Assembly: GCA_000004695.1 (NCBI GenBank)
Contig: CM000152.2
Coordinates: forward strand, 4,800,001 to 4,864,000
Source: Dictyostelium discoideum
Lineage: Eukaryota
Direction of reading: 5' to 3'
DNA: 64,000 nucleotides
In this document: in pieces, positions 1,424-26,766 of the stretch
Layout: every line of letters begins with the position of its first letter
Position numbering within the stretch: the stretch's first letter is position 1
Notes under the pieces: model-generated
The model's input: the letters and a program-made list of their open reading frames with translations, nothing else
Databases searched by the model: none
What the model was told of the DNA's origin: nothing
Made by a program: the position numbers and the translations under genes

Positions 1424-1948
1424 TATTTATTTTTAAGTATGTTTAAATTTAGAAAAAAAAAAAAAAAAAAAAAAAAAAAGAATAATTTCAAAAGCAAAAA
1501 AGGTTTAAAAAAAAAAAAAATAATAATTTAAAAATTATGACAAACATTTGTGGTTTATTATTAGGTTTTTGGGTGTGGGTGGGGTGGAGTGTTAAATTTA
1601 ATCTTTAACGTGATGATTGAGTGTTTATAAAAAAAAAAAAAAAAAAAAACCAATTGAGTGTTTTTTATTTTCTTAGCATCACCAATTTCATTTTTTCTTT
1701 AAAATTTTGAGAGTTACTTTGCGAGATTATCAACTTTATTTATATGTGTTTCTTTATTTTATATGGGCACTAGGTGTTAATGAAGAAATAAATAAAAAAA
1801 TAAAAAAATACTTTAAGAAAAAAAAAAAAAAAAACAAATAAAATTAAAAATAGGAAAAAAAAGGGATAAAATTAAGATTTTAAATAAATGTTTCTTTTTT
1901 TTATATTTTTTTTAAAGAGATAACAAAAGAAATTTATTGTTAATCATT

Positions 1949-2463
1949 TTATTTGGCAGCAGTTGGTTTCTTGACACCTGGACGGGATGGTCTGGTTCTG
2001 ATTTTTCTGTCGGCAACTGAACGAACACGGACGATGTGACTGTGGATAGCACATGAAATACAGTATTGGGATTTAACGTAGGTTCTTGGGAATTTGTAAC
2101 CTTTGACGTTGAAAACACCTTGATCTGAAATATCCTTAACGGCAGCATTTTCGACGATTGGTCTAATGTAGAATCTCTTGACAGCTTTGTCCTATTTTTT
2201 TTAATAATAAAAGAAATAAATTTTTTTGATAATTAGCTAAATAAATTCCTCTCTCTCTTTTTTTTTTTGTATCATAATTTGATCAATTTCTTTAATTATC
2301 CTCTTATAAATTTATCTATTTTTCCTATGACTCTAATTATTTTTTTTAAAAATTAATTTTTACATACTTTTGGGACACATCTAGCACAGTTGGTGCATCT
2401 GATGTATGGAACACTACCACGACCGTGTTTTGATCTACCGTGATTACGTCTCTTTTGGGTCAT
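1949..2463 (-). CDS. rps26: 40S ribosomal protein S26 (eS26). Exons 2378..2463 and 1949..2194, intron 2195..2377.
   Basis: Hand translation of the minus strand gives [32 protein letters not shown] | [80 protein letters not shown]. This is a near-perfect match to eS26 ([17 protein letters not shown]...YCVSCAIHS). GTATGT donor and ATAG acceptor. The ORF-track entry 1912..2148 is an overlapping wrong frame. Confidence 0.9.
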
Positions 2464-2810
2464 TTTGAATAATTCTATTTATTTTTTAAAAGAAATAATT
2501 TTAATTAATATTTAATTCCAAAAAAAATTACTGCTGTTTTTTTTTGTTGTAGTAACTGTGATGATAAAATGAAAACAGAATGAATGAAAAAAAAAAAAAT
2601 TTCAACTTGTGAGAGGAAAAAAAAAAAAAAAAAAAAATGAAAAAAAGTAAAAAATTTTGTGTGACTCGGTTTTTTTTTTCCAACCCAAAATGAAATTGTT
2701 ATCTAACACTAAATTCACCTTTGCTGTTTTGATTCCTCTTTTAATAACATCCTAAACTATTTAAATTATTTTATTGGGTTTGTCATTATTTCTATTATTA
2801 TTATTATTAT

Positions 2811-2845
<35 letters not shown>

Positions 2846-3426
2846 GTTGGTGGTGATTTAATCTTTTTATTATCAAATAAAAAAAAGTTCTAAATTTTTG
2901 ATTATTTATTTGTGTTTTTATTGTTTTATTTTATTATATTTTTTTTTATATTATTTTATTTATTGTTTATTTTTTTTTTTCTTTTATTATTTTTTTTTTT
3001 TTAAAAAAAAAAATGAAGTACTACAACATAGTATCTCTCTAAATATACACATAAAAAAATTCTCACCTTTGTCGTACGAAATAAAAAGAGAGAAAAAGGA
3101 AAAAAAAAATAAAAAAATATTTTTTCAGTACACTCCCCTGCGCCTCAATAAAAAATTAAAAAAAATTCATGTGATTGAAAAATTATTGAGGTGAGTTTTT
3201 ACATAATTTTTACATAATTACGTAATTTCAATTTTTTTTTTTTTTTTATTTTATTTTTTATTTTTTTTTTTTTCCCAAATTTTTTTTTTGGAAATAAGCA
3301 CCAATTAACAATAATCAAATATTTGATCAAGATTTATTTCAATTGTTTAATTTTAATTTTTTATTTTAGATTGATTTTATCCACAATTTTATTTTAATTA
3401 TTTTAATTTTTTTTTTTAATTATTAT

Positions 3427-4046: not shown

Positions 4047-5222
4047 ATGGGTAGAGGTGGTCATACATGTTTAAATAATTATTGCCAAAATGAATTAAAA
4101 TTCGAAATTCCAAAAGATGTTACTAAAAAACCACAATTAATTCCACTATCACCAATAAATAAACAAATTTTAAAAAAAATTAAAAATAATAATAAAAAAC
4201 AAAAAAAGATGGAAAAGAAATTAAATCAATTTGAATTTTTAAATATTTTTGAAATTGATAAAAATAATATTTCATTTTCAACAACTGATGATGATGATGA
4301 TGATGATAATAATGAAAAGATTAGTAAATTAAATAATTCAATTAATAATAATAATTATAAAGAAAACAATAGTAATATAATCATTGAAAAAACACCAGAT
4401 TTAATTGAAAATGATGAATTAATAATAGACAATAATGAAAAAGAAAATCAAGAAAAAGAAAAAAAATTAAAGGAGGAGGAGGAGGAAGAGGAAGAAAGAT
4501 TATTTTTAGAATTAGAGAAAGAAAAAGAAATTTTAGAAGATGGAGAATTTAATGAAATTTTTGAATCAATTGGTGATATAAATGAAATTGGAGAAGAGTA
4601 TGAGTATCAATTAACAAATAAAAAGACTTGTTTATATAAAAGAGTGACAAAGGATAATAAGAAACCAAAGGTATCAAAAAGACCAGAAAAAGCCATTGAA
4701 TTATCAAAAGAGGCAAGAAAGAGTTATTGGTTATCTTTCCACTTCGGAAAACAATTGGATACAAGACCAAAAGAAGTTAAGATCAGTCAACTCAGTTTCA
4801 ATGGCACCGGTAAAGAAGATTCTTATGAGGCTCAATTACGTAAAGCTTTATCATTAAGTAAATCTGAATACGATAGACAAGTTAAAAAGGATATTACACC
4901 ATTATCACAACTTCAAATTAATGATATACTCAATAGAGAGTTAACACCAGAAGATTATGAATTATTACTCTTATTAGATGAAAATATTAAACCAAAAACT
5001 GTAGATGAAGATGATATCAATAAATTATTAACAGTGAAATTTGATACTCAACTCTTGCAACAATTCTCAACCTGTATGATTTGTTTATCTGATTTCGATC
5101 TTGGTGAATCAATCATTAAATTACCATGCTCTCACATTTTCCATATTAATTGTATTTCAAATTGGTTATCAAATGCTTCTACAAAATGTCCAATTGATAA
5201 TATTCCTATTGTAAATAATTAA
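4047..5222 (+). CDS. RING-H2 E3 ubiquitin ligase with a ubiquitin-interacting motif, 391 aa, single exon.
   Basis: C-terminal CMICLSDFDLGESIIKLPCSHIFHINCISNWLSNASTKCPI has C-x2-C-x13-C-x-H-x2-H-x2-C-x10-C-P spacing (RING-H2). EDSYEAQLRKALSLSKSE matches the UIM consensus. Acidic and N-rich low-complexity N-terminus. Confidence 0.75.
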   Translation: MGRGGHTCLNNYCQNELKFEIPKDVTKKPQLIPLSPINKQILKKIKNNNKKQKKMEKKLNQFEFLNIFEIDKNNISFSTTDDDDDDDNNEKISKLNNSINNNNYKENNSNIIIEKTPDLIENDELIIDNNEKENQEKEKKLKEEEEEEEERLFLELEKEKEILEDGEFNEIFESIGDINEIGEEYEYQLTNKKTCLYKRVTKDNKKPKVSKRPEKAIELSKEARKSYWLSFHFGKQLDTRPKEVKISQLSFNGTGKEDSYEAQLRKALSLSKSEYDRQVKKDITPLSQLQINDILNRELTPEDYELLLLLDENIKPKTVDEDDINKLLTVKFDTQLLQQFSTCMICLSDFDLGESIIKLPCSHIFHINCISNWLSNASTKCPIDNIPIVNN

Positions 5223-6126
5223 TGTAATAATTACCCATTTAATTTTAAATAAAATTTTTTATGTATAATAACTATAATAGTCCAATTCTCTTTTTTTTTT
5301 TTTTTTTAATTTTAATCTTGGTTATTTTTTTTTTTTTAATTTGTTATATTGATAATTATTAATTTCGAAACAAATAATTATTAATCAAAGTATCAATTAA
5401 TGATAATAATAATTTTAACCAAATAAAATGGAAATTATATTTTTAAAATAATAAAAAGGTAAAAGAAAATTTATTTAATTTTTTTATTTATTTTTTATTA
5501 ATTTATTATCATTACAAATTAAAAATCTCAAAAAAAAGTTTAAAAAAACTCATACTAATATAAATAAATATTCATTTTAATTATTAAGAGTATTTTATTT
5601 TTATTTTCTTTTTTTGCCTTTATCTAAACAAAAAATGAATTACAAATAATTAAATTCTTAAAATAATTTTTGACTCAAAAACAGATGGTTTCATTAATTT
5701 TTTTTATATTTTATATTGTTTTGTGTATTTTTGATTGTTCTATTTTTATAAACTTAATTCATTTTAAAAAATAAATAAAATTATATATCATTGTTTTAAA
5801 AAAAAATAAAAAAAAACGAAAAAATGAATTTTTTTTTTAATTATAATTTAAGTTTTTTAGTTTTGTTTAACCATTTTTATATTTATAATAATAAAATAAA
5901 ACAAAAATAAAAAAAAAATAAAAAAAAAAAAAATACAAAAGTGGTTTTAATAATAAAATTAGAAATTGTTAGAATGATTTTTTCAGATTAAAATTGAATT
6001 TGGCGCTTTTTTCTCAAAACACTTTTTTTTTTTTTTTCACACAAAAAAAAGAAAAAAAAAAAAAATTGTAAATTATTTTTTATTTTTCATCTTTTATTAA
6101 AGGTTGATAATAAATTTAATAAATAA

Positions 6127-6160
<34 letters not shown>

Positions 6161-9100
6161 ATGCCAAGACTAAAACTACCAAAATCATTCAAAGATGAAT
6201 TGGAGTCTGAAAAAACAACAACAACGAGTTCAAGAAAGAAAGCACCAGTTGTAGATCCAAAACAAACTTTGATGAGTAGTTTTTTTACACCAGTTTCAAA
6301 GTCTACAGATACAAAAGAAATAAATAATAAAGAAGATAAAGATGAAGATAAAGATAAAGATAAAGATAATAAAAAAACTAAAAAAAGTAAAGATACAAGT
6401 GATAATGAAGATATGGTTGATGATAATAATAAACAACAAAAAGAAAAGAAAGCAACACCAAATAAATCAAATTCACCTCAATCACCACAAACTTCAAAAT
6501 CACCTTTAACAAGAAGAAGTAGTGCTAATGGAAATAGTGATTCAAAAATAGATAATAAAGAAAAAGAAAAAGAAAAAGAGAAAGAAAAAGAAAAAGATAA
6601 AAGTACACCAACAAAAACAACAAGTTCAAGAGTCAAAAAAGATACAGAAGTTTCTAAATCTATACCACCAAAATTATCAAAACAAACTAAAAAAAAACAA
6701 ATATCTAGTGATAATGATATTTATGATGATGAAAAAGATTCAGAAGAAGAGGATTTAGAAGATGATCATGATGATGAAGAGGAAAAGGTTGTAGTAAAGA
6801 AACCATCAAAACCAACATCAAAATCAATTACAGCAAAACCAGCATCAACAAAAGCAACAACAACAACAACAACAACTACAACAACAACTTCAACAGGTAG
6901 AACAAGAGTCAATAGAGTGAATTTAGATATTTCATTTTCATCTGAAAGTGAGGAAGATGAAAAACCAAAGAAAAAGATTATTGGTAAAAAAAGAAAGAAG
7001 AAAGATGATAGTGATTTTGATTCTGAATCAGAATCAGATACAATCTCTGAAGCATCTGAAGTTGAACCTGAATCAGAGGAAGATTTAGATTCATTTAAAT
7101 TTAACTCAAAAAAGAAAAATAATAATAAAAATAACAATAATAAAAAGAAAAATGACGAATATGAAGATGAAGAAGAAGATGAAGATGATGAATTATTCAA
7201 AGATATTGAAATGAAAGATAAACCAGAAGAGGAAGAAAAAGAAGAAGAAGGTGACCCAATTGTTATCGGATCAGGTCGTGTTGTATTACCAAAAGGTACA
7301 CCTGATTTCCAACCAGATCCAAAAGCAGGTAAAAAACTATTAAAAGCTCATTTGGAAATTCAATCAAAAGAGGAAGCAAAGAGATTACAACAAGCAAATG
7401 GTGGTGGTGGTGACGGTGGTGGTGGTCAAATAAAGGGTAGTGATGATGAAGATGAGGAAGTTAAAAAACCAACAAAAGGTGGATCAAAAGCATCAGCGAA
7501 AAAGAAAGGACCAGCATATACACCATTGGAACAACAATATATTGCAATTAAAAAAGAGAATCCAGATACGGTGTTGATGGTTGAATGTGGTTATAAATAT
7601 AAATTCTTTGGAGAAGATGCAGAGGTTGCGAATAAAGTATTAAATATTTACTCATACGTAGCAAAGAATTTCTTAAATTGTAGCATACCAACACAACGTC
7701 TTTTCTTTCACCTTAGAAGATTAGTTATGGCAGGTTATAAAGTTGGTATTGTTGAGCAAACTGAAACTGCAGCATTGAAAGCAATTAGTTCATCAAAATC
7801 ACAACCATTTGAAAGAAAATTAACAAGAGTATACACATCGTCAACATTTATCGATGACGATATCGATGATCAACTTACAAGTTCGTCACCACAATTTTTA
7901 GTATCATTTTATGAAAGCACACCAAAGAATAAGAACGATGATGTGATTAAAAAACAAAGGGATAACGAAGAGGAGGGAATCGATAGCAGTAATGAATCAT
8001 CAACTTCAACTATATCATTTGTTGCAGTTAGTGTAAAAACTGGTGAAATTATCTATGATACATTTAAAGATAATGTAATGAGAAGTCAATTGGAAACTAT
8101 TTTAACTCATATAAAACCAAGTGAAATTTTAATACCACCAACAACAACAACAGTGAATAAACAAAAAGTTAATAATGGAATTGGTACCAATCATTATTAT
8201 TTTTCAAATCTTACAAGTAAATGTTTAAAAACTTACACTAAATCAACCAATGTTAGAACTCAAGCAATGGATAGTCAACTTTATGATTACGAGTATTCCT
8301 TGGGTAAATTAATCGATTTCTATGAAGATGAGTCCAATAATAATAATAATAACAACAACTGTGAGGATGTATTGAAATTTGTAAAATCAACATTAAATAA
8401 GGAGCAAATCATTTGTTTGGGTATATTATTAAGTTATTTGAATGAGTTCATTCATTTTGGTAGTATTTTAAAGGTGGAATCAAATTTCAAAGCATTTAGA
8501 GTCTCAAATCATTTAGTGTTACCACATTCAACCATTGTAAATTTAGAGTTATTAGTTAATGAATCAGATAACAAGGAGAAAGGATCATTGATTTGGTTAA
8601 TGAATCGTACAAGTACATTCTCTGGTAGTAGAATGTTTATCAATTGGATTTGTAAACCTTTGAATCAATTAGAGTTAATTAAAGAAAGACAAGATGCAGT
8701 TGAAGAATTAGTAAATGGTATAAAAACAAATTCACCACCAATTGTTTCAATCATTTCTTTATTCAAATCACATATTCCAGATTTACAACGTAATTTATCA
8801 CGTATCTATTATAAAGTTCAATGTACACCAAAAGAATTTTTAAATACAATGACTTCATTACAACGTATTGTTGAATTATTTAAAGAAATCAATAATAATA
8901 ATAGTAGTTATAAATTTAATTCAACTTTATTAAATTCAATATTTAAATTACAAAATGATAATAAAGATGGTGACAGTGATAGTTTTGATTATATTGGTGG
9001 TGAAGATAAATTATCAAAAAGAATTAAATACTTTTTATCAAATATAAATAAAGAAACTGCAAAAGAGTATGGAACTGTTGGTTGTGATAAATCAAATCTT

Positions 9101-17954: not shown

Positions 17955-18596
17955 ATGGAAATTAATAAAAATTATTTTTTATTGTTATTAATACTATTAA
18001 ACATTTCTAATTTTGTTTTAGGTGGTTCAATTAATCTTTCTTTAAGATCACAAGGAGTAAATTTTGGAGATAAAATATTATAATTTATTTAAAAAATTAA
18101 ATTTTACTCAATACTAATTAATATAAATATTTTTTTTTTTATCCTTTTTTTTTCAAAAAATAAAAAATAGCATAGCTCAATAAGAACTTCTTGGATTATT
18201 ATTGGTGAGAGAACATATTTATTGAATGGTCGTGGAATAAATGCATTTGCATTTGATCCATCAAATCCAAGTGTTGTAAAAATGTTAAAATCCGATACAT
18301 ATATGGAAGAGCCACCTTTTGTTAAAGACGTTTCAGTTGGTTTTACCAGCTTCGTCGGAGAGATTAAACCACGTAAAAACTGGGTAATTGCAATTGTTTC
18401 TTTAGATGATTCATATCTAAATATGAGTGAAGATGTTCGTCAATGGTTTAGAGGATATGGTATCTCTTTATCATATAGAGGTTCTTATGCATTAGTTTTA
18501 CAATCAAATGGCTTGGCTCTTAATAAAATTGCAGGAAGTTCCTCAACTATTGAAGGATCAAGTTCTGTTTTAGAGTCTGTTATTGTTTCATATTAA
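17955..18596 (+). CDS. Secreted hypothetical protein, paralog B. Exons 17955..18056 (signal peptide) and 18171..18596.
   Basis: Exon 1 MEINKNYFLLLLILLNISNFVLGGSINLSLRSQG has a GTAAAT donor. AAAATAG acceptor, phase 0. Mature part HSSIRTSWIIIGERTYLLNGRGINAFAFDP...LDDSYLNMSEDV...YRGSYALVLQSNG shares the RG-x-A-AF-P, DDS-L-M and RGS-LQ-NG blocks and the exon structure with paralog A. The two genes are head-to-head, about 740 bp apart. Confidence 0.6.
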
Positions 18597-18961
18597 AAAT
18601 TAAAATAAATAAAATGTTTTCTTTTTAAAAATTTAATACGAATTTGGATACTTTTTTACTTTATTGGTTTTAATGGCTAATGAAACATAAATTTCCATGT
18701 TGCAACTGTTTTTTAAATAATTTGTTGGTTTGATTTAATTGAAAATAATAAAAAAAAACCAAGCAATTGGAGTGGTAATAACAATAAATTTACAAAGCCC
18801 ATGATTTTTTTTTTTTTTTTTTTTTTAATTGGGGAATAAAAAAAAAAAAAAAAAAACCAAACAACCAGTTCCAAATAAAGTTTTACAAAAATGTTTATTT
18901 TATTTAAAATTATTTAATTTTTATTTAATTTAATTTCAAATTATAATAATTGAACCTTAGG

Positions 18962-19673: not shown

Positions 19674-20465
19674 ATGGAATCACCTGTTGTAGAGGGTAAT
19701 AGTGGCGAAGTTGCAACACCAACACTTCCACAACCACCAACACCAGTTAGTAGCAATATTAGGGTTGTATGTAGAGTAAGACCATTAACTGAATTGGAGA
19801 AAGGAAGAAACGAACATTCTATTGTACATTTTTTCGATTCAAAGTCTATCTCAATTAGAGCCAATGGTCCTCAATTTACATTCGATCGTATCTTTGGTTA
19901 CCAAGAGACACAATCTCAAATATTTGAAGATGTTGCAGAACCTATAGTAAATGATTTCTTGGATGGTTATCATGGTACAATTATTGCATATGGTCAAACT
20001 GCATCAGGTTAGTTTTTTTTTTTTTTTTATTTATTTATTTATTATATATTTACTAATAATTAATTTATAATTACAGGTAAAACATTTACAATGGTTGGTG
20101 ATCCAGATTCACATGGTATCATTCCTAGAGTTATCGAGAGTATTTTTGTGGGTATTTCAAAGATGAGAGAAAAAGATACTTCATTATCACTTGCATTTTG
20201 TTTGAAAATATCTGCATTGGAATTGTATAATGAGAAACTTTATGATCTTTATGATGCTTCAAAAAGTAATCTTAACATTAGAGAGCACAAACAAAATGGC
20301 ATCTATGTTGAAGGTATAAGTGAAATAGTTATCACAAGTATTGAAGAAGCATATAATTTTTTAAATATTTCAAATAATAATAGAGCAATTGCTTCAACAA
20401 GTATGTATTTATTTATATTATTATTTATTTGGGTTTATTTTAGGAAACTAATTTATTTATTTATT

Positions 20466-20508
<43 letters not shown>

Positions 20509-22495
20509 TTAAAAAAGAAATGAGTGCTGCAAGTTCAAGAAGTCATTCAGTATTAATGATTGAATTATCACAACAAAATTTATCAATGGAAAGTTCAAAA
20601 ATTTCAAAATTATTTTTGGTAGATTTAGCAGGTAGTGAGAGAGCACATAAAACTGGTGCAGAAGGTGATCGTATGCAAGAAGCAAAGAATATTAATTTAT
20701 CATTATCAGCATTGGGTAAAGTTATTAATGCATTGACATGTGGTGCAAACTATGTTCCATATCGTGATAGTAAACTCACTAGAGTTTTACAAGATTCATT
20801 AGGTGGTAACTCAAAGACATCACTAATCATCAATTGTTCACCAAGTAATAACAATGAACATGAAACCATTACAACACTTCAATTTGGTACACGTGCAAAA
20901 ACCATTAAAAATCAACCAAAGATTAACAAAAAAATCACATATCATGAATTAGAGTTATTCATCATTAAATTAGCTAAAGATTTAGAGAAAAGTCGTAAAG
21001 AGTGTGAAGAGATTACAAGAAGTAAAAATTTAGAGATTAATAATCTTTTAATTCAATTGGAAAATAATCAAAAAATGGTTGTAGAAAGTAATCAAAAGTT
21101 AGAGTTATTAAATAGTCAAATTTCAAGTAATCATTCATTTGATAATACTTTTAAAGAAATTGAAAATACTTGTGAAAATAGTAAAATCATTTTTGATGAT
21201 TTAAATGATCATATTAATAATAATAATAATGTTGATGAAAATAATAATACCAATAATAATGATAATAATAATAATGATAATAATAACAATAATCAATATC
21301 AAGAAGAATCAAATCAATATCAACAAGAAAATAATCAAAAAGATGGTGATCAAAATAATTCTAGCTTTGATTCAATTAAAGTTGAAGATTTAAGAGATTT
21401 AGATGATGAACCTGATATTGAGGATATAATTTTAAATAGTACTTTAGGCAATATTTCTGATGATGATGATGATGACGATGATCATCATAGCAACAATAAC
21501 AATGTAGATGATAATAATAATGGTGAAATCAATAACGATAGTGATGGTTATTTAAATCGTTCATTAAAAGATATTAAAATTCCCGAGATTTCTGATTTAA
21601 ATGATCACAACATTAATAATAATAACAACAACAACAACAACATAAACAATGATAACAATAGTAATAGTGGTGGTTTGAGAGTATCAACTTCTTATATTAC
21701 TTCATCACCAAATTTATCACCATCAAAGAGTATGGATGTCAATAATTCTCCTCCTCTCTTTAGCTATTTTAAAACTAAAGATTTTCCACCATCATCTGAT
21801 GAAAATGATAAGTTTTTTAATGATTTAATAGCCAAAGGAGAAAATGAACAACAACAACAACAACAACAACATAATGATGATGATGAAGATATTAAATCAA
21901 CCACCTCAAATGCAACAACAACAACTATAACTACAATAGATATGAATGCATCACATCCATCAGGTATTGATGATCCAATAGAGTTTACAATTATTAAATC
22001 TGATAAAACTATTACATCAACAATCGAAAGAGAAACCATTCAACCTTCTTCATTATCAAATTCTACATCACTTTTAGATATTGAAACTGTAGAATCTTCA
22101 ACATTACCAGCTCCCCCACCTGTTACAACTACTACAACCTTAACAACCGTTACAACTACTAAACTCACAAAAACAACAAATATACCATCAAATACAAATG
22201 ATATCAATAGCATTGATGATTTTGGTTTCTCAAAGATTGAAGAAGAGGGATCATCAAGCAATCGTAAACCAAATGATACTGCTATTCTTTCATTTGGCGA
22301 TGATGATGATGAAGAAAATGAGGATAATGAAAATGAAGATGTCATCGTTGATAGTGACGAAGATACTCACTCTGGTAAAAATAATTTATTAAATACATTT
22401 AAAAACGATCATCATCGTGGTGATTTTGGTGCAACTCCAACCAAATCAATATTTAACAAAAATGGAAATATTACAATTAAAGAATTTGAAACCCC

Positions 22496-22562
<67 letters not shown>

Positions 22563-23053
22563 CCCCTCATTCTTCAAACAACTTCCACTAATCCAACAAT
22601 CATTTCAATAAAAAGTAATAAAGAACCATCTCCATCATCATCAACAACAACATCAATTAAAAAAAAAAATTTTAACAAACGTAGATCCTGGATTATTTTT
22701 ACCATAATTTTAACCATAACTTTAGTTTCAAGCTCACTCTTATGTTTATATCTTCCAGAATATAAAGAAAGATTAGTCCAACGTAGAGGTTATTTGAATA
22801 AATTAGGAATCTATTCTGACTACCCAACAAATGAAAAAATATCACTCGCCCAACACAACCAAATTTCGTTAGCTAAAGAATTATATGGTGGAAACAGTAA
22901 ACAATATTATGATGAAATGTCAAGCTTTAATACTGCCTACAATCATTTAATTGAAATGAGTTTGTATTATTTTTTTTAAACTTTTAAGAAAAAAAAAAAA
23001 AAAAAAATACACACACTAATTTCTTTTCTTTTTTTTTTTTTTTATTTATTCAT

Positions 23054-23100
<47 letters not shown>

Positions 23101-23774
23101 TTTTAGACCACTTAGAGACTGCTGTTTCAAAAATTTTTGGATCTGCAATTGATTTAAGATTTTCTGGAGACGATGTAATTAATTCAATCGAATGTAAAAG
23201 GGCAATCCATAAACTTAAAACAAACAATTATGTTAATGGAGATTTAGACCAACAACAACAACAACACAATTATATAACCAAAATAGATCAACTTTCAGAA
23301 CAATCAAAAGAACAAAACCAATTGATTGAAAACTTTAAATTGGATTTGAAAAATAAAACAAGTGAAATCGAAAAATTGGAAAAAGAAATTAAACAAAAGG
23401 ATAATAAGATTAAAGAAAAAGAAGAAAAAATAGAATTAATTGAATCACGAGTCTTAAATGAAGAAAAAGGAGGTGAAAAGGTATTGGAAGATCAAATAAT
23501 TTCCCTTAGAAATGATAAAAATACTTTATCCACCCAAATATTAAATTTGGAAGGTGATAAGAAATCTTTGGGTGTTCTTGTTATTAAATTGAATTCTGAC
23601 AAGACCGAGATTCAAAATGAAGTCAAAGAATTAAAAAGAAAAGTTCAGGAACTTGAAGATGCTCCAATCGCATTGATTCCAAATCCATTTGTTAAATGGG
23701 TCAAATCTTTCTATGTTGAAAAGAAATCTTGGTTTGTTGAAAATATTTATAAAATTTGGAATTGGTTTAAATAA
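19674..23774 (+). CDS. Kinesin with an N-terminal motor domain, a poly-Q/N/D-rich stalk and a hydrophobic transmembrane-like segment. Possibly Dictyostelium Kif9. Exons 19674..20007, 20077..20400, 20518..22959, and a proposed fourth exon 23107..23774.
   Basis: Motor motifs: IRVVCRVRPL; P-loop GQTASG|KTFTM split by intron 1 (GTTAGT..ACAG); SSRSHS (switch I) just after intron 2 (GTATGT..117 bp..AAAAG, length a multiple of 3); LVDLAGSE (switch II). Hydrophobic 23-aa stretch RRSWIIFTIILTITLVSSSLLCLYLP near aa 870. A GTTTGT donor sits 7 codons before the stop of the 22979 ORF. A TTTTAG acceptor at 23105-23106 opens a coding-like segment that is in frame (phase 1+2) with ORF 23322..23774 (coiled-coil, no own ATG before 23322). 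Exon 4 confidence about 0.45. Confidence 0.8.
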
Positions 23775-23973: not shown

Positions 23974-25160
23974 ATTATTTTGATTTAAAATTTATTTTGA
24001 TTTAAAATTTAAAAAAAAATAAAAATAATCAGAATCTAAAAAAAAAAAAATAATAATAAACAAAAAAAAAAATAAAAGTAATCAAAACCCAAAAAAGATT
24101 AATTCTCCATAAAAAAAAAAAAAATTCAGTGAAAAACAAATAATCTATAAAAAAAAAAAAATAACAAAAAAATTAAGCGTTGGCACAAAAAAAAATTTTT
24201 ACATTGGGCTATGTAAAAACTATGTATAAAAATTGGGCAAAATTACCCCTCTCGCAACAATTTTTTTTTTTTTGTGTTTTTATGCGTCTATCAAAATTTT
24301 TTTCAATTTTTTTTGAATTTTTTTTTTTACTTCTAAGTTGTTCGAGTTTTTGGTATGTGTATACACATTATTTGTTTACGATTTTTTTTTTTTTTTTTTT
24401 TTTTTTGTAAGGCAAAAATAAAATAAAAAAAAAAAAAATAAAATAAAAATAAAAAGATTTTAAAGACAGAACCCAAGTACACATATGATTATAAAGATAG
24501 CAAAAAAAAAAAAAAAATAATAATAATAAAAAGCAATAAAATAAAAAAAAAAAAAATAAAAAAAAAGAAAAAAAAAAAATAAAAAAAATAATAATAATAA
24601 TAATAAAAATAGATTTTTAAATGGTAGAAATAGTTTGGTATTTAGAAATTTACAATCTGATTGTAGAGAAATTTTAAAAAATCAACTACAATTTTTATTA
24701 TTCAAGTTGAAACCTTTATTTTTATTTGTTTAATTTATCCTTGACTAGGATATATTAAACAGTAGACATGGAGAATAGACTATGTGAAAATACAGATAAA
24801 AAATTTATTGGTTGCCAATTTTAAAAATTGATTAAAAATAAAAATACATCACCATATAAAAATCTTTTGAAAAAAATACACAATAATAATAAAAAAAATA
24901 ATACAACACAATAATAAATAAAATAATAATACAACAGGGCAAATAAAAAAATAAAATAACAAACCATCAGTCTTTTATCATCACTTTTTTTTTTTCCGTA
25001 AAAATTTTCGGTTTTTTTTTTTTTTTTTTTTTTTTCAGTCACTTTTTTTTTTTTTTTCGATTCCAAATTTTTTTTTTTTTAAAACACAATTAAAAATTAG
25101 TCACTAACCTTTCATTATCTCTATTATTTAGACAATCCTTATAAAATCTAAAACAACAAA

Positions 25161-25826
25161 ATGGTCTCTCTTAAATTACAAAAGAGATTAGCTGCCTCTA
25201 TTCTCAAATGCGGCAAAGGTAGAGTTTGGATCGATCCAAATGAAATTGCTGATGTTGCCATGGCCAACTCAAGTAAGTATTATATTTTTTTAAAAAATTC
25301 AAATCAATCAAAATCAAATAATTAGTAGTAAAAAAAACATAAAACTGATAATGAAATTATAAATTGAAAATTTATAGGAGATAACGTCCGTAGACTCATC
25401 GCTACCGGTTTCATCATGCGTAAACCAGTTGTTGTCCACTCTCGTTCACGTGCTAGAGAACACAACGCTGCCAAACGTTTAGGTCGTCACAGAGGTGCTG
25501 GTAACAGATTAGGTACCCGTGAAGCTCGTCTCCCATCCAAGATTCTTTGGATCCGTAGAATCAGAGTTTTAAGAAGACTCTTAAAGAAATACCGTGAAGC
25601 CAAGAAAATCGATAAACACTCTTACAGAGAGTTATACCTCAAAGCCAAAGGTAATGTCTTCAAGAACAAACGTACCTTAATTGAATACATCGTCAAATCT
25701 AAGACTGAAAAATTAAGAGAAAAACTCATCCAAGATCAAGCTCAAGCCCGTAGAAACAAGAACAAATCAATCAAAGACAGACGTGCTGCTAAATCTGCCG
25801 CCAAAGAAATTGTTTCATCAAACTAA
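25161..25826 (+). CDS. rpl19: 60S ribosomal protein L19 (eL19). Exons 25161..25272 and 25378..25826.
   Basis: [37 protein letters not shown] | [105 protein letters not shown]... is collinear with eL19. GTAAGT donor, TTTATAG acceptor. Confidence 0.95.
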
Positions 25827-26766
25827 AATAAATAATACAATCTTTTTTAATATTTTATTTAGATTTAAATTTATTTCCATTAATTATTATTCTTATCATT
25901 CCTAATTTTTATTTCCTTTTTTTATGTGATTGAATTTAAATGTTTTAGAGTTAAATCTTTTTTATTTTTTTTGAACAACTTATGTTTTTATAATTAGCTT
26001 TAAAGATACATTTGTAATTATTATAATGTTTTAATGATATTATTGTGTGTTATGAAACTTTTATTTTAAAAATTTATAAAAATAGTTGGGGAGTTGACAG
26101 TTTAATAATAATAATGGTTTTTTAAAACCAATTTCAAAATTAAAGAAATTATTTAATAGAATAATAATAATAATCATAAAAGATTTTAATAATAATTATA
26201 AAAGATTTTAATAATAATTATAAAGATTTTATTTAAACGAAAATAAAACAAATTCAAACTAACAACAAAAAAAAGAAAAAACTATTTTAATAATAACAAT
26301 GGCGATGAAAAAGAAATATCATGGTTTATAAAATATAAAAATGAAGAAGATTATAAAGAACTAAAAAAAAGTATTGGTAATAAAAAAGTGCAGCTATGGT
26401 TGTGGTTGGTGCAATCCACCAATTACTAGAAAAAGTAGAATTTTAAAATTATAAAAAATTTACAGAATATAAAAGATTGAACGTGGGTATGACATAAATG
26501 TGGAGGATTACCAAAAAAATAAATATTTATTTTTCTTAACAATTTTTATTATACAAAATTATTTAAATAATTTAATAAACTATTTTATAATTTTGTATAA
26601 TAAAAAATTAAATTAATTTCTATACATTTTTTTAAATTTCAGGTTTAATCCAAACAAAAATATTATTAAAATTATTTTATTTTTTTTTATTTTTTTTTTT
26701 TATTTATTTATTATTTATTTGTTTATTTTATTCTTTTTTTAATTTTTTTTTTTAGTTTAATAGTTT

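Follow-up and report, generated by a model that had tools for sequence, protein, structure and literature searches.

A four-exon kinesin gene of Dictyostelium discoideum, most likely kif7, with a predicted internal membrane helix

We have analysed a 64,000-nt stretch of Dictyostelium discoideum DNA (contig CM000152.2 of assembly GCA_000004695.1, positions 4,800,001 to 4,864,000 of the forward strand), which is called the window below and in which position 1 is the first letter. We describe here its plus-strand segment 19674-23774, which is one kinesin gene of four exons with a coding sequence of 3768 nt and, once the exons are joined, a product of 1255 amino acids (aa) that carries a predicted membrane helix. 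It is most likely the described kif7 (K7) gene and not kif9, the name proposed in an earlier, model-made reading of the DNA letters (referred to as the sequence-only reading); to this reading of the segment as a whole we give a probability of about 0.85.

The gene and its product

The reading frame opens with an ATG at 19674 and closes with a TAA at 23772-23774; the features of the gene and of its protein are listed in Table 1. Two introns near the 5' end, at 20008-20076 and 20401-20517, are additional to the one considered in the sequence-only reading, and all three introns of the gene are of the GT..AG type. The window is extremely AT-rich, with a guanine-plus-cytosine (GC) content of 27-37% in the exons of the kinesin gene, 7-8% in its three introns and 9-15% in its flanks, an exon/intron contrast that is typical of Dictyostelium.

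The N-terminal kinesin motor and the low-complexity stalk recognized in the sequence-only reading were both borne out. The Pfam kinesin family, PF00225, matches aa 34-349 over the full length of the model (E = 4.9e-111), and the motor motifs are intact: the P-loop GQTASGKT (aa 107), switch I SSRSH (aa 225) and switch II DLAGSE (aa 255), followed by the neck-linker motif TIKN at aa 348. Among PDB sequences, kinesin-1 or kinesin-1-derived chains take the first 26 places (E = 9e-98 to 2e-85), with kinesin-2 next at 1e-79. By these best matches, which assign the class here in place of a tree, the motor is kinesin-1-like as well as N-terminal. The neck coiled coil that follows, at ~aa 357-440, is probably a cytosolic dimerisation segment. 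Beyond it, the linker at aa 441-930 is rich in N (17%), D (12%), S (11%), T (10%) and Q (8%), with repeat lengths that vary between strains.

The protein thus resembles the kinesin-1 heavy chain (KIF5/KHC) in its motor sequence, its TIKN neck linker and its short neck coil, and differs from it in the remainder. The heptad scan detected only the short neck coil, before the linker, and not the long stalk coiled coil of kinesin-1. No auto-inhibitory IAK motif was found in a tail context, the single 'IAK' of the protein lying at aa 657 in low-complexity sequence. Moreover, cargo attachment in the window protein would be through an integral helix and not through light chains or adaptors.

Two repeats in the gene differ in length from those of the other D. 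discoideum strain, namely the 22-codon CAA (Gln) run of exon 3 (22477-22545) and the (ATTT)n run of intron 3 (23040-23100). Both are instances of ordinary microsatellite variation.

Table 1. Positions, in window coordinates, of features of the kinesin gene and its predicted protein
Feature	Position	Strand	Remarks
Exon 1	19674-20007	+	ATG to P-loop codons GQTAS-G (codon split); N-terminus identical to that of the annotated orthologue P0001
Intron 1	20008-20076	+	GTTAGT...ACAG, 69 nt, 7% GC; position kept in D. firmibasis, D. discoideum ACTFIW, D. citrinum and D. purpureum
Exon 2	20077-20400	+	Central motor domain
Intron 2	20401-20517	+	GTATGT...AAAG, 117 nt, 8% GC, long T-run; position conserved in orthologues
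Exon 3	20518-22959	+	Remaining motor, neck, low-complexity linker, transmembrane helix, first 67 residues beyond the helix
Intron 3	22960-23106	+	147 nt, phase 1, donor GTTTGT, acceptor TTTTAG, 8% GC
In-frame TAA	22977-22979	+	Sole in-frame stop within intron 3; would end an intron-retaining product
Exon 4	23107-23774	+	aa 1034-1255 and TAA stop
AATAAA	23770-23775	+	Overlaps the exon 4 stop codon
Kinesin motor domain	19773-20906	+	aa 34-349; coding region split by introns 1 and 2
Neck and short coiled coil	20928-21179	+	~aa 357-440; heptad scan, E/L/K-rich composition
Low-complexity linker	21180-22649	+	aa 441-930, ~490 residues, including a 22-Gln run
Predicted transmembrane helix WIIFTIILTITLVSSSLLCLYLP	22689-22757	+	aa 944-966 (W944-P966)
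Conserved helical domain beside the membrane helix	22758-23231	+	aa 967-1075; coding region split by intron 3; carries LGIYSDYPT and AYNHLIEM|N motifs
Coiled coil	23307-23663	+	~aa 1101-1219; heptad scan, two long predicted helices
Trp/Phe/Lys-rich C-terminal helix NPFVKWVKSFYVEKKSWFVENIYKIWNWFK	23682-23771	+	aa 1226-1255; helix in the structure model

The third intron and the last exon

The sequence-only reading had proposed that a GTTTGT donor, placed 7 codons before an apparent stop, is phase-compatible with a TTTTAG acceptor ending at 23106, and that this acceptor opens a coiled-coil exon that has no ATG of its own. We observed that the splice from 22959 to 23107 does keep the frame (phase 1, through a split Asn codon) and yields the 1255-aa product; the donor is indeed at 22960, with six codons (SLYYFF) between it and the TAA. 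Exon 4 was found to contain zero in-frame ATGs over its 221 codons, and to contain a coiled coil by heptad scan. The ATGs that occur within 22980-23321 are out of frame only. Having no in-frame ATG, exon 4 cannot by itself supply the start of a eukaryotic protein.

The composition of exon 4 is that of coding sequence. A run of 221 stop-free codons has a chance of ~2e-10 at the base composition of the exon, and its GC content of 27% is well above that of the intron (8%) and of the 3' flank (9%). The codon usage of exon 4 fits that of exons 1-3 solely in the proposed frame, at +0.22 bits per codon vs -0.80 and -1.05 in the other two.

For comparison of the intron we used the orthologous loci of D. 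discoideum ACTFIW (L004), D. citrinum (L005), D. firmibasis (L003) and D. purpureum (L001). The codon position and the phase of intron 3 are common to all five Dictyostelium genomes, the window included, and its length is 147 nt in the window, 118 in ACTFIW, 76 in D. citrinum, 72 in D. firmibasis and 63 in D. purpureum. In DNA alignments of these loci, length variation is confined to intron 3, within which the donor (GTTTGT or GTTAGT), a branch-point-like CACTAAT motif, a T-tract (which in the window includes the (ATTT)n run) and the terminal AG are conserved. By comparison with ACTFIW, exon 4 shows 3, 3 and 10 substitutions at codon positions 1, 2 and 3, respectively, and zero indels, vs a length difference of 29 nt in intron 3; by comparison with D. 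citrinum, it shows 29, 27 and 49 substitutions and no indels other than those of 3 and 9 nt, vs a difference of 71 nt in the intron. These orthologous lengths also bear on stop-codon read-through, which in the window would be in frame through 147 nt and a single TAA. Introns of, for example, 118 and 76 nt are not multiples of 3, and conserved read-through was rejected for that reason.

The junction at aa 1033|1034 (IEM|N) adjoins the invariant Y and L of AYNHL, inside a domain conserved throughout the Dictyostelia, and falls within one helix of the AlphaFold prediction (model residues 85-115, in a block with a predicted local distance difference test score, pLDDT, of 70-82). The annotated orthologues, of 1250, 1250, 1213 and 1415 aa, are continuous across this junction. 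In the aggregate, the comparisons indicate that the 3' exon is real and is spliced at the proposed donor and acceptor. With exon 4 spliced in, the membrane helix is therefore internal and not C-terminal, as the sequence-only reading had anticipated, with 289 residues after it.

An in-frame stop only six codons past the donor does invite another arrangement, in which the gene ends at TAA 22977-22979 with a product of 1039 aa terminating in SLYYFF, and in which the downstream coiled-coil open reading frame (ORF) belongs to another gene or the unspliced form makes up a major second isoform. A separate gene, at 23322-23774, was the outcome that the sequence-only reading had named as fatal to its own proposal; the missing ATG, the conserved intron and the position of the junction inside a conserved helix contradict it. 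The frame of exon 4 opens exactly at the conserved acceptor, and it is the position and phase of intron 3 that are conserved, not its length and sequence. Nor is the peptide that read-through would add conserved, D. citrinum having a TAG two codons in, and no AATAAA was found inside intron 3. The splice 22959/23107 is a prediction from sequence and comparison, and two public annotations appear at first sight to favour the shorter gene: that of Heterostelium album, which has the two parts as separate genes, and that of Acytostelium subglobosum, whose model lacks the tail.

The DNA of these two species gives a different account of them. In H. album (GL291010.1, L006 3001-7059), the public model is a 992-aa kinesin that ends 41 residues past the helix, and a separate 188-aa hypothetical protein is annotated just downstream. 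The annotated kinesin stop overlaps a GTAAGT donor, and two GTAAGT..AG introns, of 62 and 83 nt, join both genes in frame into a homologous tail that ends PLPLRWIKSIVNWFKSIFG. In A. subglobosum (DF837576.1, L007 4534-6533), the annotated 786-aa orthologue skips the helix and the tail, yet two ORFs of the locus, 4534-5718 and 5988-6533, encode a helix, VYIISIILITTLLVTASMYI, the LSKLGL motif, a coiled coil and a C-terminal sequence, PLPIRLIKRLVTWLKSWFGQ. Thus two public annotations mis-model the gene, one by splitting it and the other by dropping the helix and tail, and on all of these observations we regard a gene ending at 22979, or a major unspliced isoform, as very unlikely.

The D. purpureum model (GL870944.1, L001 3001-4987) has an N-terminal extension of ~210 aa, made of three extra exons, one of them across a 1132-nt intron. 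This extension is absent from the other orthologues and may reflect the joining of an upstream gene to the kinesin.

Relationship to Kif7 and Kif9

The sequence-only reading had suggested that the gene might encode DdKif9, which resides at the nuclear envelope and ties the centrosome to the nucleus, and Kif9 is the one Dictyostelium kinesin with a transmembrane domain described in the literature searched. The two proteins would be alike in being kinesins of the same organism anchored in a membrane by a transmembrane helix of their own. However, Kif9 has an internal motor of the kinesin-13 type and a transmembrane helix at its C-terminus, with a membrane domain of ~23 residues, and it depolymerises microtubules (PMC11816917). 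In the window protein, the motor is at aa 34-349 and not internal, its best matches are kinesin-1 heavy chains and not kinesin-13, and 289 residues lie beyond the helix, vs the extreme C-terminal, tail-anchor-like helix of Kif9. We rejected the DdKif9 identity on these three defining features (motor position, motor class and helix position), and we give it next to no chance of being correct.

The kinesin-1-class genes of Dictyostelium are Kif3, Kif5 and Kif7. Kif7 is a developmentally regulated, plus-end motor that is expressed only in development and moves at 0.14 um/s, and its knockout shows no vegetative defect (PMC7140473); kif7 nulls have developmental defects in competition assays only (PMC2396615). 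We found no feature of the window protein that conflicts with Kif7, with which it shares an N-terminal kinesin-1-class motor in the same genus. In work of de Hostos et al. in 1998, the non-motor region of K7 was reportedly Asn/Gln/Thr-rich with little coiled coil, which is a further likeness to the window protein, and K7 is said to have been located at a membranous perinuclear structure. The database length of Kif7 is reportedly 1255 aa, the same as that of our model.

Several observations weigh against the assignment. An exact look-up of the 1255-aa and the 1039-aa products found neither in the protein collection, and the name 'Kif7' was attached to no homology match; it is taken here from the table of the review cited above and from the reported features of K7. 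The nearest database proteins, a cluster of two entries that are 95% identical and come from other D. discoideum strains, are labelled 'hypothetical protein'. We regard Kif7 as very likely to be the right name.

The putative membrane helix, the tail and the flanking DNA

The clean hydrophobic helix of 23 residues noted in the sequence-only reading was confirmed as the one clean membrane-type segment of the protein, although it had been typed as 22 residues and reaches 23 only with the leading Trp. The helix at aa 944-966 is the sole segment of membrane grade, with a Kyte-Doolittle mean of 2.45 over 19 residues, the next best segment having 1.17. It lies ~290 residues from the C-terminus, is also predicted to be helical in the structure model, and has basic flanks, with a net charge of +6 on the N-side (KKKNFNKRRS) and of +3 on the C-side. 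In the orthologues, the corresponding segment has 21-23 uninterrupted hydrophobic residues with a Kyte-Doolittle mean of 2.3-3.2, so that the sequence drifts and the hydrophobicity is kept. The summed insertion free energy on the Hessa scale, a crude and position-independent sum, is negative for all orthologues.

Full-length orthologues were found with 95% identity in D. discoideum strains, 83% in D. citrinum and 70% in D. firmibasis, as well as in D. purpureum, Polysphondylium violaceum and one EukProt entry; 260-320 residues follow the helix in these proteins. Since the H. album and A. subglobosum loci also encode the helix and tail, the combination of helix, coiled-coil tail and Trp/Phe/Lys-rich C-terminal helix is shared by all of the dictyostelid loci examined (8/8). 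Outside this group we did not encounter it. A profile of the helix and adjacent domain matched only dictyostelid orthologues when compared with 1.84 billion representative proteins; the tail profile was seeded with the tail of P0001, which is 97% identical to that of the window. Similarly, a membrane-grade segment (Kyte-Doolittle of at least 2.0) was present in 8 of the 121 kinesin-1-like proteins retrieved, all 8 being dictyostelid orthologues, and the other 113 had values of 1.34 or less.

All of the 289-residue tail is predicted to be helical. It begins with the conserved domain beside the membrane helix, whose model helices have a pLDDT of ~70-82, continues with the coiled coil of ~120 residues and ends with the Trp/Phe/Lys-rich helix; related motifs close the tails of H. 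album (PLPLRWIKSIVNWFKSIFG) and A. subglobosum (PLPIRLIKRLVTWLKSWFGQ). A Foldseek search against the PDB returned only generic helical matches that were non-significant (best E = 0.13). Two familiar classes of membrane protein were considered for this architecture and rejected. A tail-anchored protein, whose single helix lies within ~30-40 residues of the C-terminus, does not agree with the 289 residues after the helix, or with the 73 that would follow it even in the unspliced product, and a KASH-like protein, with ~30 luminal residues that end in PPPX, does not agree with a tail of 289 residues that ends in ...IWNWFK.

A topology for the protein can be proposed from these features. The motor would face the cytosol, where the microtubules are, and since it must reach them, the single helix would insert in the manner of a type-II signal anchor, leaving the N-terminus cytosolic; the charge difference of +6 (N-side) vs +3 (C-side) agrees with this orientation. 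Given a cytosolic N-terminus and a single helix, the coiled-coil tail would lie in the lumen of an endomembrane (endoplasmic reticulum, nuclear envelope or perinuclear compartment). Such a protein, a plus-end motor integral to a perinuclear endomembrane, would draw that membrane along microtubules via a long flexible tether, the linker of ~500 residues; the coiled coil in the lumen would serve to pair two chains or to bind a partner there. The tail of the orthologue P0007 contains a Cys-rich cluster, a feature typical of luminal or extracellular domains, which fits a luminal tail. We put forward only tentatively, as a possibility with odds well short of even, that Kif7 may be an integral membrane kinesin of type-II topology. 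Its tail of 289 residues, in the lumen of the endoplasmic reticulum or nuclear envelope, would pair chains or bind a luminal partner, for example a SUN-type protein, and motor force would pass across the membrane with no adaptor.

Kinesin tails are normally cytosolic, and the topology proposed here is a prediction from sequence. The hydrophobic segment might instead be buried or peripheral, without spanning a membrane, and the tail a cytosolic, cargo-binding coiled coil. The D. discoideum tail is in keeping with such an arrangement in being poor in cysteines and in N-glycosylation sequons, of which it has one. This single sequon, the positive charge of the C-side flank (net +3) and the moderate confidence of the tail model (mean pLDDT of 66.5) all speak against our proposal. 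On the other hand, uninterrupted hydrophobicity and a negative insertion energy are found in every orthologue, the flanks are basic, and the hydrophobicity is kept despite drift of the sequence. In addition, the segment is located between low-complexity sequence and a helical domain, outside a globular core, the tail of P0007 has its Cys-rich cluster, and K7 is reported to occur at a membranous structure near the nucleus. We regard a segment that does not span the membrane as unlikely.

The proposed membrane-spanning arrangement has parallels in CLIMP-63 (CKAP4) and the SUN-domain proteins, type-II proteins in which one transmembrane helix separates an N-terminal part in the cytosol or nucleoplasm from a coiled coil in the lumen; the N-terminal part of CLIMP-63 binds microtubules. 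The likeness is of architecture only, with no sequence or fold similarity detected. These proteins have no motor domain, and the window protein has neither a SUN domain nor a KASH-like PPPX.

The membrane helix of Kif9 has been called 'a rather unique feature' (PMC7140473), so that integral-membrane kinesins appear to be rare. Searches of the literature on K7, on a Kif7 transmembrane domain and on natural membrane-spanning kinesins yielded only Kif9 and in-vitro work on 'membrane-anchored kinesin', and the helix-plus-luminal-tail architecture appears to be functionally unstudied in the literature searched. If the helix of Kif7 spans a membrane, the protein would be a second integral-membrane motor of Dictyostelium, of another kinesin class and another topology, with a large luminal coiled coil, and it would offer a simple system for adaptor-free movement of a membrane by a motor. 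Such an arrangement might also account for the reported perinuclear membrane localisation and for the mild developmental phenotype that kif7 nulls show in competition. The gene itself is already known, and the lineage-specific luminal-tail architecture is the sole part that might repay experiments.

The region that surrounds the gene is syntenic with the ACTFIW locus L004, at ~91% nucleotide identity. Relative to window positions 18670-18680, L004 has ~1.24 kb of extra DNA (1785-3024) that carries a minus-strand gene for a ubiquitin-domain protein, absent from the window. Upstream of the kinesin gene, a plus-strand ORF at 18222-18596 begins MNGRGINAFAFDPSNPS, and there is a weak call of an ILEI-domain gene nearby in the syntenic L004. 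Downstream, the window has a GC-richer stretch at ~25100-25900 (plus strand), and the corresponding gene in the D. firmibasis, ACTFIW and D. citrinum loci (L003, L004 and L005) is that for ribosomal protein L19e.

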